A stretch of 64,000 nt of DNA, taken from the NCBI RefSeq assembly GCF_002854065.1, contig NZ_CP024147.1; one strand, given 5' to 3'. This DNA comes from Escherichia coli. GTDB lineage: Bacteria; Pseudomonadota; Gammaproteobacteria; Enterobacterales; Enterobacteriaceae. The notes below the pieces were generated by a model, which worked only from the letters and a program-made list of their open reading frames with translations, had not been told where the DNA came from and did not search any database. Position numbers and translations under genes: made by a program. Shown one piece after another: positions 52,710 through 61,932 of the stretch (the first letter of the stretch is position 1; every line of letters begins with the position of its first letter).

Positions 52710-53594
52710 ATGTCTCATTTAAAAGACCCGACCACGCAGTATTACACTGGTGAATATCCCAAACAGAAACAACCGACGCCAGGCATCCAGGCGAAGATGA
52801 CACCGGTACCGGATTGCGGCGAGAAAACCTATGTTGGTAGCGGTCGCCTGAAAGATCGTAAAGCCCTGGTGACAGGGGGCGATTCCGGAATCGGTCGCGC
52901 TGCCGCCATCGCTTACGCGCGTGAAGGGGCTGACGTGGCGATCAGTTATCTTCCCGTGGAAGAAGAAGACGCTCAGGATGTGAAAAAGATCATTGAAGAA
53001 TGCGGACGCAAAGCCGTTCTGCTGCCAGGCGATTTAAGCGATGAGAAATTTGCCCGTTCGCTGGTTCACGAAGCGCATAAGGCCTTAGGTGGGCTGGATA
53101 TTATGGCGCTGGTCGCCGGGAAACAGGTTGCCATTCCTGATATTGCAGACCTCACCAGCGAACAGTTTCAAAAGACCTTTGCCATTAACGTTTTCGCGCT
53201 GTTCTGGCTAACCCAGGAAGCGATCCCCCTGCTACCGAAAGGTGCAAGTATTATCACCACTTCGTCAATCCAGGCATACCAGCCAAGCCCGCATTTACTG
53301 GACTATGCGGCTACGAAGGCGGCAATTCTGAACTACAGCCGTGGCCTGGCAAAACAGGTCGCAGAGAAAGGTATTCGGGTGAATATTGTCGCGCCAGGCC
53401 CGATCTGGACAGCACTGCAAATTTCCGGCGGACAAACGCAGGATAAGATCCCGCAGTTTGGTCAGAAAACGCCGATGAAGCGTGCGGGGCAACCGGCGGA
53501 ACTGGCCCCTGTATATGTTTATCTGGCAAGTCAGGAGTCGAGCTACGTCACCGCAGAAGTGCACGGCGTGTGCGGCGGCGAGCATTTAGGTTAA
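52710..53594 (+). CDS. yghA: Short-chain dehydrogenase/reductase YghA, 294 aa
   Basis: [12 protein letters not shown]ossmann motif; full-length ORF. Confidence 0.9.
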
Positions 53595-53639
53595 AAAAAT
53601 ACCCGGTTGTGAAAAGCAACCGGGCATCATTGTGAATTC

Positions 53640-53860
53640 ACTCTTACCTGATGTGGCGAAAACGCCTTATCCACCTACAAACGCATGAAGATTCAACATG
53701 TTGCAATAGATTTTGTAGGACTGATAAGCGTAGCGCATCAGGCATTGAGCACCTAATGCCGGATGCGGCGTGAACGCCTTATCCGGCCTACAAACGCACG
53801 AAGATTCAACATGTTGCAATAGATTTTGTAGGCCTGATGAGCGTAGCGCATCAGGCAATT
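53640..53860. repeat. Tandem BIME/REP cluster (about 100-bp unit present twice)
   Basis: Unit acaaacgca(t/c)gaagattcaacatgttgcaatagattttgtagg(a/c)ctgat(a/g)agcgtagcgcatcaggca repeated at about 53680 and 53790, flanked by REP motif gccggatgcggcgtgaacgccttatccggcctac. Confidence 0.7.
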
Positions 53861-53865
53861 CTACT

Positions 53866-54291
53866 TTACTTCGCTTTGGCAGTTTCTTCGCCAACCAGAC
53901 CTATCTTCAGGTAACCCGCCTGATGCAGCGTATCCATTACCTTCATCAACGTCTCGTAATCGACGGTTTTGTCCGCTCGGAAGAAGATGGTGGTGTCTTT
54001 CTTACCTTCGGTTAACGCATTCAACGCCGTAATCATTGTTTCATCGGTGACCGGATCGTTACCGATAAACATCGAGTTGTCTGCCTTCACCGACAGATAA
54101 ACCGGTTTTTCCGGGCGCGGCTGCGGCGTGCTGGTAGAAGCAGGCAAGTTAACCTTCACATCTACCGTCGCTAACGGTGCCGCCACCATAAAGATAATCA
54201 GCAGAACCAACATCACGTCGATAAACGGCGTCACGTTGATATCATGCATTTCGCCGTTATCATCGAGGTTTTCGTTAAGATGCATTGCCAT
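53866..54291 (-). CDS. exbD: TonB-system energizer component ExbD, 141 aa
   Basis: MAMHLNENLDDNGEMHDINVTPFIDVMLVLLIIFMVAAP... Confidence 0.95.
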   Translation of the reverse strand: MAMHLNENLDDNGEMHDINVTPFIDVMLVLLIIFMVAAPLATVDVKVNLPASTSTPQPRPEKPVYLSVKADNSMFIGNDPVTDETMITALNALTEGKKDTTIFFRADKTVDYETLMKVMDTLHQAGYLKIGLVGEETAKAK

Positions 54292-54297
54292 CGGACA

Positions 54298-55032
54298 TTA
54301 TCCTGCGCGTAATTTTTGTGCGACACGAACCGGATGCGCAGCGGCGCTGGCTTCCAGATCCAGGTCACGGCTTTGCAGCAATAATACCTGCGCTGCAACA
54401 TCACCCAGCATCGCTTTAAAGCCGCCAATCTGACGCGCGAATACGTTATAGATAACGACCGCCGGAATCGCTGCCACCAGACCGATTGCCGTTGCTAACA
54501 GAGCTTCTGCGATACCCGGCGCAACGACTGCCAGGTTAGTAGTCTGCGTTTGCGCGATACCAATAAAGCTGTTCATGATGCCCCAGACCGTACCAAACAG
54601 CCCAACGAACGGCGAAATCGCGCCGATGGTTGCCAGATAGCCGTTACCGCGGCCCATTTGACGACCTACTGCGGCGACCCGACGCTCCAGACGGAAGCTG
54701 GTACGTTCTTTAATACCTTCGTTATCGTCGCTGCCTTCTGACAGTTCCAGCTCATTCTGCGCTTCATTGAGCAAATGCAGGCTTAAGCTTTTGCTACCAA
54801 AATCAGCGGCGATATCGTTGGCCTGGTTTAAGGAACGCGCTTCAGCCAGCAGTTGCTGCTCGCGCTTAAGGCGACGCTTCTGATTGAAGAACTCTACGCT
54901 CTTACTGAAGAAGATTGCCCAGGTGACTACGGAGGCCAAAATAAGCCCAATCATCACACACTTAACGACAATATCGGCGTGCTGATACATACCCCAGACG
55001 GAAAGGTCCGTCTGCATTAAATTATTACCCAC
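54298..55032 (-). CDS. exbB: TonB-system proton channel component ExbB, 244 aa
   Basis: Full-length ORF MGNNLMQTDLSVWGMYQHADIVVKCVMIGLILASVVTWAIFF... Confidence 0.95.
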   Translation of the reverse strand: MGNNLMQTDLSVWGMYQHADIVVKCVMIGLILASVVTWAIFFSKSVEFFNQKRRLKREQQLLAEARSLNQANDIAADFGSKSLSLHLLNEAQNELELSEGSDDNEGIKERTSFRLERRVAAVGRQMGRGNGYLATIGAISPFVGLFGTVWGIMNSFIGIAQTQTTNLAVVAPGIAEALLATAIGLVAAIPAVVIYNVFARQIGGFKAMLGDVAAQVLLLQSRDLDLEASAAAHPVRVAQKLRAG

Positions 55033-55095
55033 TGTGTATCTCCAGGACGCAAGTCACAAAATCTGCGCATAATAATATCAAAACGACGTCGAATT

Positions 55096-55114
55096 GATAG
55101 TCGTTCTCATTACT
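55096..55114. promoter_or_regulatory. Candidate Fur box upstream of exbB
   Basis: gatagtcgttctcattact matches the 19-bp Fur consensus gataatgataatcattatc at 12 of 19 positions; located in the exbB promoter region. Confidence 0.35.
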
Positions 55115-55249
55115 ATTTGCATACTGCCGTACCTTTGCTTTCTTTTCCTTGCGTTTACGCAGTAAAAAAGTCACCAGCACGCCATTTGCGAAAATTTTCT
55201 GCTTTATGCCAATTCTTCAGGATGCGCCCGCGAATATTCATGCTAGTTT

Positions 55250-55265
55250 AGACATCCAGACGTAT
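55250..55265 (+). promoter_or_regulatory. Two tandem MetJ boxes upstream of metC
   Basis: agacatcc agacgtat, each 6 of 8 matches to the met-box consensus agacgtct, about 20 nt upstream of the metC ATG. Confidence 0.5.
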
Positions 55266-55283
55266 AAAAACAGGAATCCCGAC

Positions 55284-56471
55284 ATGGCGGACAAAAAGCT
55301 TGATACTCAACTGGTGAATGCAGGACGCAGCAAAAAATACACTCTCGGCGCGGTAAATAGCGTGATTCAGCGCGCTTCTTCGCTGGTATTTGAGAGTATG
55401 GAAGCCAAAAAGCACGCGACGCGCAATCGCGCCAATGGCGAGTTGTTCTATGGACGGCGCGGAACGTTAACCCATTTTTCCTTACAACAAGCGATGTGTG
55501 AACTGGAAGGTGGCGCAGGCTGCGCGCTATTTCCCTGCGGGGCGGCAGCGGTTGCTAATTCGATTCTTGCTTTTGTCGAACAGGGCGATCATGTGTTGAT
55601 GACCAACACCGCCTATGAACCGAGTCAGGATTTCTGTAGCAAAATCCTCAGCAAACTGGGCGTAACGACATCGTGGTTTGATCCGCTGATTGGTGCCGAT
55701 ATCGTTAAGCATCTGCAGCCAAACACTAAAATCGTGTTTCTGGAATCGCTAGGCTCCATCACCATGGAAGTCCACGACGTTCCGGCGATTGTTGCCGCCG
55801 TACGCAGTGTGGTGCCGGATGCCATCATTATGATCGACAACACCTGGGCAGCCGGTGTGCTGTTTAAGGCGCTGGATTTTGGCATCGATGTTTCTATTCA
55901 GGCCGCCACCAAATATCTGGTTGGGCATTCAGATGCGATGATTGGCACTGCCGTGTGCAATGCCCGTTGCTGGGAGCAGCTACGGGAAAATGCCTATCTG
56001 ATGGGCCAAATGGTCGATGCTGATACCGCCTATATAACCAGCCGTGGCCTGCGCACATTAGGTGTGCGTTTGCGTCAACATCATGAAAGCAGTCTGAAAG
56101 TGGCCGAATGGCTGGCAGAACATCCGCAAGTTGCGCGAGTTAACCACCCTGCCCTGCCAGGCAGTAAAGGACACGAATTCTGGAAACGAGACTTTACAGG
56201 CAGCAGCGGGCTATTTTCCTTTGTGCTTAAGAAAAAACTCAATGATGAAGAGCTGGCGAACTATCTGGATAACTTCAGTTTATTCAGCATGGCCTACTCG
56301 TGGGGCGGGTATGAATCGTTGATCCTGGCAAATCAACCAGAACATATCGCCGCCATTCGCCCACAAGGCGAGATCGATTTTAGCGGGACCTTGATTCGCC
56401 TGCATATTGGTCTGGAAGATGTCGACGATCTGATTGCCGATCTGGACGCCGGTTTTGCGCGGATTGTATAA
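55284..56471 (+). CDS. metC: Cystathionine beta-lyase, 395 aa
   Basis: ORF in track; start set at [33 protein letters not shown] (ATG 55284). Confidence 0.95.
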
Positions 56472-56610
56472 CATTGCCACTTTTGGACAATTTTGCAGAC
56501 ATTTTATTGTGAAAAGTCTTAAATTGTTGCGTCCGGGATCAAGGCGTCCCGGACGATTCAGGAGTACAATAGGCAGATAAAGGCTTAAACGCTGTTCCAC
56601 AGGAAAGTCC

Positions 56611-57270
56611 ATGGCTGTTATTCAAGATATCATCGCTGCGCTCTGGCAACACGACTTTGCCGCGCTGGCGGATCCTCATATTGTTAGCGTTGTTTACTTT
56701 GTCATGTTTGCCACGCTGTTTTTAGAAAACGGCCTGCTGCCCGCCTCATTTTTGCCAGGCGACAGCTTGTTGATATTGGCTGGCGCATTGATTGCCCAGG
56801 GGGTTATGGATTTTCTGCCTACGATTGCGATTCTGACCGCCGCAGCAAGTCTGGGCTGCTGGCTAAGTTATATTCAGGGGCGCTGGTTAGGGAATACCAA
56901 AACGGTGAAAGGCTGGCTGGCACAGCTTCCTGCTAAATATCATCAGCGCGCCACCTGCATGTTTGACCGCCACGGTCTGCTGGCGCTGCTGGCTGGACGT
57001 TTTCTTGCATTTGTCCGTACGCTGCTGCCAACCATGGCGGGAATTTCCGGTCTGCCAAACCGCCGTTTCCAGTTTTTCAACTGGTTAAGCGGATTGCTGT
57101 GGGTCAGCGTGGTAACCAGTTTCGGCTATGCCTTAAGTATGATTCCGTTCGTTAAACGCCATGAAGATCAGGTAATGACGTTCCTGATGATCCTGCCAAT
57201 TGCCTTGTTAACCGCTGGCTTGTTAGGCACGCTGTTTGTGGTGATTAAAAAAAAATACTGTAACGCCTGA
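56611..57270 (+). CDS. yghB: DedA-family inner membrane protein, 219 aa
   Basis: Full-length [47 protein letters not shown]... Confidence 0.9.
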
Positions 57271-61624: not shown

Positions 61625-61674
61625 GCTGAATTAAATAACAATTAGCCGGAACAATAAATAAAAGGGAACACTAT

Positions 61675-61932
61675 ATGAAAACGATTTTCACCGTGGGAGC
61701 TGTTGTTCTGGCAACCTGCTTGCTCAGTGGCTGCGTCAATGAGCAAAAGGTCAATCAACTGGCGAGCAATGTACAAACATTAAATGCCAAAATCGCCCGG
61801 CTTGAGCAGGATATGAAAGCACTACGCCCACAAATCTATGCTGCCAAATCCGAAGCTAACAGAGCCAATACGCGTCTTGATGCACAGGACTATTTTGAAT
61901 GCCTACGCTGCATGCGTATGTACGCAGAATGA
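61675..61932 (+). CDS. yqhH: Lpp-like small lipoprotein YqhH, 85 aa
   Basis: Lipobox LLSGC plus coiled-coil region [17 protein letters not shown] similar to Braun lipoprotein. Confidence 0.8.

Follow-up and report, generated by a model that had tools for sequence, protein, structure and literature searches.

The DNA that we analysed is a stretch of 64,000 nucleotides of the Escherichia coli chromosome, which is called the window throughout, and the features studied here lie around the divergent genes exbB and metC (Table 1). Of 5426 complete E. coli genomes, 5422 contain a match to a 501-bp stretch around exbB-metC, and there the features are annotated as exbB and metC. The spacer between both genes (55033-55283, 251 bp) is base-for-base identical to positions 3151985-3152235 of the K-12 MG1655 sequence NC_000913.3, and the window coordinate of any base is its NC_000913.3 coordinate minus 3096952.

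Regarding the gene names, exbB carries the label 'tol-pal system-associated acyl-CoA thioesterase' in 8 of the 8 E. coli RefSeq records listed and 'Ton complex subunit ExbB' in MG1655, and the RefSeq label looks like a propagated product-name error. When positions 53500-56700 were scanned with Rfam (E <= 1), no RNA family was found inside the exbB-metC spacer. Outside the spacer the scan gave a weak STnc310 match, and naRNA4, a REP-derived family, matched both strands at 53718-53788, between a yghA-like ORF and exbD, with 61.7 bits on the minus strand, which is above the gathering score. The repeated sequence flanking this match looks like a REP/BIME cluster.

Table 1. Genes, transcription starts, promoter elements and regulatory sites in and around the exbB-metC spacer (window coordinates).
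Feature	Position	Strand	Description and source
exbB CDS	54298..55032	-	244 aa, GTG start at 55032; ORF list, annotated exbB in E. coli genomes
exbBD P1 (proximal) start	55064	-	SMRT-Cappable-seq TSS 3152016, b3006|b3005 (PMC6131387 Suppl. Data 2)
Candidate extended -10, exbB P1	55072..55080	-	TGaTATTAT, hexamer at -13..-8; strongly conserved in 78 species
Fur operator	55093..55111	.	9-1-9 inverted repeat ATTGATAGTcGTTCTCATT, centre 55102, 70 nt upstream of the exbB start codon
Classical-register Fur box	55096..55114	.	GATAGTCGTTCTCATTACT; 12/19 forward, 13/19 against the reverse complement of the consensus
exbBD P2 (distal) start	55114	-	SMRT-Cappable-seq TSS 3152066 (PMC6131387)
Published Fur ChIP-exo peak (exbB)	55117..55139	.	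P95, 3150091-3150113 of U00096.2 (PMC10164565 supplement)
Conserved block	55146..55170	.	CCTTGCG(T/C)TTACGCAGTAAAAAAG; about 90% conserved in 78 species, flanks vary
Candidate extended -10, metC	55241..55249	+	TGcTAGTTT, hexamer at -13..-8
Met box 1	55250..55257	.	AGACATCC, 6/8 to AGACGTCT, 9.2 bits; in Augustus & Spicer Table S1
metC start	55257	+	SMRT-Cappable-seq TSS 3152209, 121 reads (PMC6131387 Suppl. Data 1 and 2)
Met box 2	55258..55265	.	AGACGTAT, 7/8 to AGACGTCT, 9.6 bits; in Augustus & Spicer Table S1
metC CDS	55284..56471	+	395 aa, ATG at 55284; ORF list and frame check, annotated metC

A simple scan for sigma-70 promoters and terminators over 54950-55350 gave nothing, that is, no canonical promoter in the spacer, and therefore we placed the promoter elements from the published transcription starts. 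The spacing to these starts, together with the conservation, points to an extended -10 for exbB P1 and another one for metC, and both remain candidates at the sequence level. In the metC candidate the TG is conserved across species, the following base is variable and the TAGTnT is conserved. The sequence TATAAA at 55262-55267 was also considered as the -10 of metC, and it was rejected because the mapped metC start is upstream of it.

The initial annotation had proposed a Fur box for exbB at 55096-55114, on the strength of a 12/19 match. Eick-Helmerich and Braun are said to have been the first to note the classical exbB 'Fur box', in 1989. Counting against the classical consensus (GATAATGATAATCATTATC), we reproduced the 12/19 on the forward strand. 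However, matches of at least 12/19 to this consensus are frequent in the 64-kb window (49 + 59 = 108), which is not above chance, and therefore the count was rejected as a test. As the initial annotation itself had proposed, we turned to matrix scans, and in these the Fur and the MetJ site each took rank 1, above the window background.

The Fur matrix was a 19-bp 9-1-9 model built from 14 footprinted, gel-shifted or otherwise well-supported E. coli sites, leaving exbB out; the site positions were those of Tables 3 and 4 of Chen et al. 2007 (PMC2189734) and the sequences were taken from NC_000913.3. The consensus of this matrix is AATGATAATcATTATCATT, in which the centre position carries zero information. 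The sequence at 55093-55111 (ATTGATAGTCGTTCTCATT) scored 18.5 bits, which was the best score among 63,982 window positions, the runner-up having 12.2 bits. From the exact score distribution, the probability of such a score is 2.3e-7 per position, so that 0.015 sites are expected per 64 kb, or about one per genome. The same matrix gave -17.9 in the register of 55096-55114, although both stretches have 16 of their 19 bases in common. Thus, the initial annotation had found the right site in its classical register, whereas the dimer site lies 3 bp away. The score of the exbB site is lower than that of every one of the 14 training sites; the site departs from the 9-1-9 consensus at four positions (2, 8, 11 and 14), and near it there is one marginal neighbour, which has 0.4 bits and is 12 bp away. 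The runner-up in the window, at 61674-61692 (TATGAAAACGATTTTCACC), overlaps the ATG of an 85-aa ORF (61675-61932, plus strand), and its match, which falls in a start region, is probably due to chance.

The assignment of this site to exbB stands, since the top matrix score of the window falls at the very position of a site that has already been gel-shifted. Actually, Chen et al. 2007 predicted a 19.1-bit exbB site centred 70 nt upstream of the start codon and obtained a gel shift with 150 nM Fur (PMC2189734). Gao et al. 2023 reported a Fur ChIP-exo peak in the spacer under iron-replete conditions, assigned to exbB, in MG1655 and W3110, and their core Fur regulon for nine E. coli strains includes both exbB and exbD, the expression values given being 1.9-5.5 (PMC10164565). 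We converted this peak to window coordinates by adding 1978 and then subtracting 3096952. The peak does not lie on the matrix site; it begins 6 bp past it and covers -3 to -25 of exbB P2. This offset may reflect either the peak calling or an extended Fur occupancy.

Regarding metC, the initial annotation had pointed out two adjacent met-box-like octamers at 55250-55265, and this claim was borne out. For MetJ, the matrix comprised the 27 boxes that Augustus & Spicer 2011 (Table S1) give for 8 E. coli operators other than metC. With this matrix the tandem scored 18.8 bits and ranked first among 63,985 positions, the next best having 13.2 bits; this score was reached 0 times in 100 shuffles, its probability is 1.4e-7 and 0.009 such matches are expected by chance. 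A third met box on either side was rejected, as the flanking octamers in register score -6.8 and -8.5, and therefore the metC operator has exactly two boxes. The tandem equals the published metC operator: in Table S1 of Augustus & Spicer 2011, agacatccagacgtat is the entry for metC of E. coli, with two boxes and a distance of 18 nt to the ATG. In that work the boxes that seeded the matrix came from known E. coli MetJ-regulon genes, metC among them, MetJ gel-shifted the intergenic region shared by exbB and metC, and metC was also among the known regulon genes in the lacZ repression assay. The initial annotation had called the matches at both operators moderate, and this does not hold, because both are strong when a matrix is used instead of a consensus count (18.5 bits for Fur and 18.8 bits for MetJ).

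In order to follow both sites across species, we scanned species-representative genomes with MetC and obtained 80 Enterobacteriaceae loci, which include Escherichia, Citrobacter, Klebsiella, Raoultella, Enterobacter and Kosakonia, and further Kluyvera, Leclercia, Lelliottia, Pluralibacter and Franconibacter. In 78 of the 80 loci exbB lies divergently upstream of metC, and the spacer is mostly around 250 bp long (range 190-277). The best Fur site was ATTGATAGTnGTTCTCATT in all these 78 species, 69-72 nt upstream of the exbB start codon: 18 of the 19 bases are invariant, and the only variable one (C, G or A) is at the centre, which is the zero-information position of the matrix. The met boxes were found in all 80 loci with 14.8-19.7 bits, usually 16-22 nt before the ATG (in the 78 with exbB), and most of their changes are exchanges between A and G at box positions 1 and 5, which are tolerated by the matrix. 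Over the 78 species, the spacer had a mean identity to E. coli of 0.75, whereas the Fur site reached 0.97 and the met boxes 0.94, and these two sites are exactly the longest runs of the spacer at 95% identity or more. Within E. coli, the 38 bp around the site were identical in 5330 of 5422 genomes for Fur and in 5104 of 5422 for the met boxes.

The four departures of the Fur site from the consensus are also invariant in 78 of 78 species. Judging from the sequences, this suggests that a tuned, sub-maximal affinity, or else overlapping promoter constraints, may be under selection. The near-total invariance of the whole site could be due in part to overlapping constraints of the P1 -35 and of the P2 start region.

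The pair is broken in one locus (L066, 1101-1500, Enterobacteriaceae bacterium UBA7338), where no exbB was found within 1.5 kb upstream of metC, and this locus serves as a natural control. This metC retains its met boxes (18.8 bits) and the TG-extended -10, whereas the Fur matrix found no Fur-like site upstream of it, the best score being -0.3. Since the met boxes are kept without a Fur site, each operator belongs to its own gene.

On the published starts, the Fur site spans -47 to -29 of exbB P1, that is, its -35 region, and +4 to +22 of P2. The met boxes span -7 to +9 of the metC start and directly follow the candidate extended -10. In our reading, to which we give a probability of roughly 0.93, each of the divergent genes has its own repressor-operator module in the spacer, and both modules are independent and about 140 bp apart. 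The geometries of both operators at the mapped starts would fit steric repression at each promoter, and the single Fur site is so positioned that it can act on both exbB promoters. When iron is plentiful, Fe2+-Fur at the dimer site would exclude or block RNA polymerase at P1 and P2, and the transcription of exbBD would go down; when iron is scarce, Fur would leave the site and exbBD would be derepressed. On the metC side, two MetJ dimers with S-adenosylmethionine (SAM) would bind the two met boxes cooperatively and occlude the metC start, so that with high methionine and SAM metC would be repressed through them.

Several other explanations have to be weighed against these two modules. The matches might be a chance resemblance to consensus sequences that are short and AT-rich or degenerate, with no regulatory role, and the 108 window matches that are as good as the classical count of 12/19 speak for it. 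Nevertheless, leave-one-out matrices rank both sites first with far less than one match expected, none of the 78 species with an intact gene pair lacks either site, and binding and regulation have been published; because of the matrix ranks and the conservation, besides the published binding, we consider chance to be excluded. Alternatively, the sites might be conserved mainly as core promoter or start elements (the P1 -35, the initial transcribed region of P2 and the +1 of metC), repressor binding being incidental; both operators overlap promoter or start regions, and hence RNA polymerase must account for some of the conservation. However, the bases that vary are precisely those at which the Fur and MetJ matrices permit it, namely the Fur centre and, as A/G, positions 1 and 5 of the met boxes; binding is seen in gel shifts and in ChIP-exo, and exbB and exbD belong to the core Fur regulon by expression. 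Conservation for RNA polymerase only is thus very unlikely, because the variation follows the repressor matrices and the binding is published. The shared spacer might also couple both genes, with Fur acting on metC too or MetJ on exbB. Since the fragment shifted by MetJ is common to both genes, the exbB operator fragment scores as 'bound', which would fit such coupling. The distances are against it, because 139 bp separate the two sites and there are 155 bp from the Fur site down to the metC start, and so is the metC of Enterobacteriaceae bacterium UBA7338, which has its met boxes without any Fur site. Furthermore, metC was not in the Fur ChIP-exo and regulon tables that were searched (PMC10164565), and the published exbB result contradicts the coupling, which we hold to be highly improbable.

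The remaining alternative is that a third regulator acts in the spacer, either CpxR at 55134-55148 or another factor at the conserved block, and this is unlikely, although clearly less so than the explanations above. In favour of such a factor, the block is conserved at around 90% and contains a short palindrome (TGCG..CGCA) whose centre is at -41.5 of the exbB P2 start. To our knowledge, the block fits none of PurR, TyrR, the LacI family, FNR and the marbox. Stronger anaerobic repression has been reported for exbB and tonB. A regulator at the block, if true, might explain this repression, and it would add a second input to the energisation of the TonB system besides iron; the block is, nevertheless, a doubtful candidate for the binding site of an unassigned P2 regulator.

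As for CpxR, a 2022 mSystems study of CpxRA lists in its Table S4 a CpxR box in the spacer, GGAAAagaaaGCAAA, at 55134-55148 on the minus strand, and the metC and exbB mRNAs were altered on Cpx activation (PMC9600279). This box adjoins the conserved block. In E. coli the proposed box and a GTAAA at 55158-55154 make up three pentamers with 10-bp spacing, but other genera do not keep the outer pentamers. Conservation is lacking for the GCAAA half-site, and in most species GTAAG stands in place of the GTAAA. Besides, the threshold of the screen was low, giving more than 10,000 putative sites, the genes were picked at random, and metC was still low in the cpxR deletion (0.08 vs 0.06), so that the dependence on CpxR is not clear (PMC9600279). 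Therefore, CpxR at these GTAAA-N5-GTAAA-like repeats (55134-55158, minus strand) was set aside, as conservation is lacking in its half-sites and what has been published in its favour is weak (PMC9600279).

Both operators of the two-module spacer were already known, and for K-12 there is nothing new in them that goes beyond the level of textbooks and databases. Three small points are worth taking into account. The consensus count of 12/19 greatly understates a real Fur site whose dimer register is 3 bp from the classical box, a single Fur site is positioned to act on two exbB promoters, and the Fur and MetJ modules are evolutionarily separable, as the met boxes stay with metC when the pair is broken. 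What we gained are, thus, refinements: the Fur site has its true register at 55093-55111, both operators could be placed on mapped starts, and the modules are separable.

Among the known systems, the exbB site of Chen et al. 2007 and our Fur site are one and the same stretch of DNA, with an identical centre 70 nt upstream and nothing that differs. With the Fur operators of fhuA, fepA-fes, entC, cir, tonB and others it has in common a 9-1-9 inverted repeat that lies on promoter elements of a gene for iron uptake or the TonB system, with repression when iron is replete. However, exbB has a single strong site with one marginal neighbour and no multi-site array. The metC operator is likewise identical to the one given for E. 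coli by Augustus & Spicer 2011, in the 16-mer agacatccagacgtat, in its two boxes and in the 18 nt to the ATG. All the MetJ operators compared consist of abutting tandem 8-bp repeats similar to AGACGTCT that overlap the promoter, and they differ in the number of boxes: metA, metBL/metJ and metF have four, metE/R, metN and metK have three, and metC has two. This count is the lowest in the E. coli list, as in ybdH/mtnE, although both metC boxes are high-scoring.
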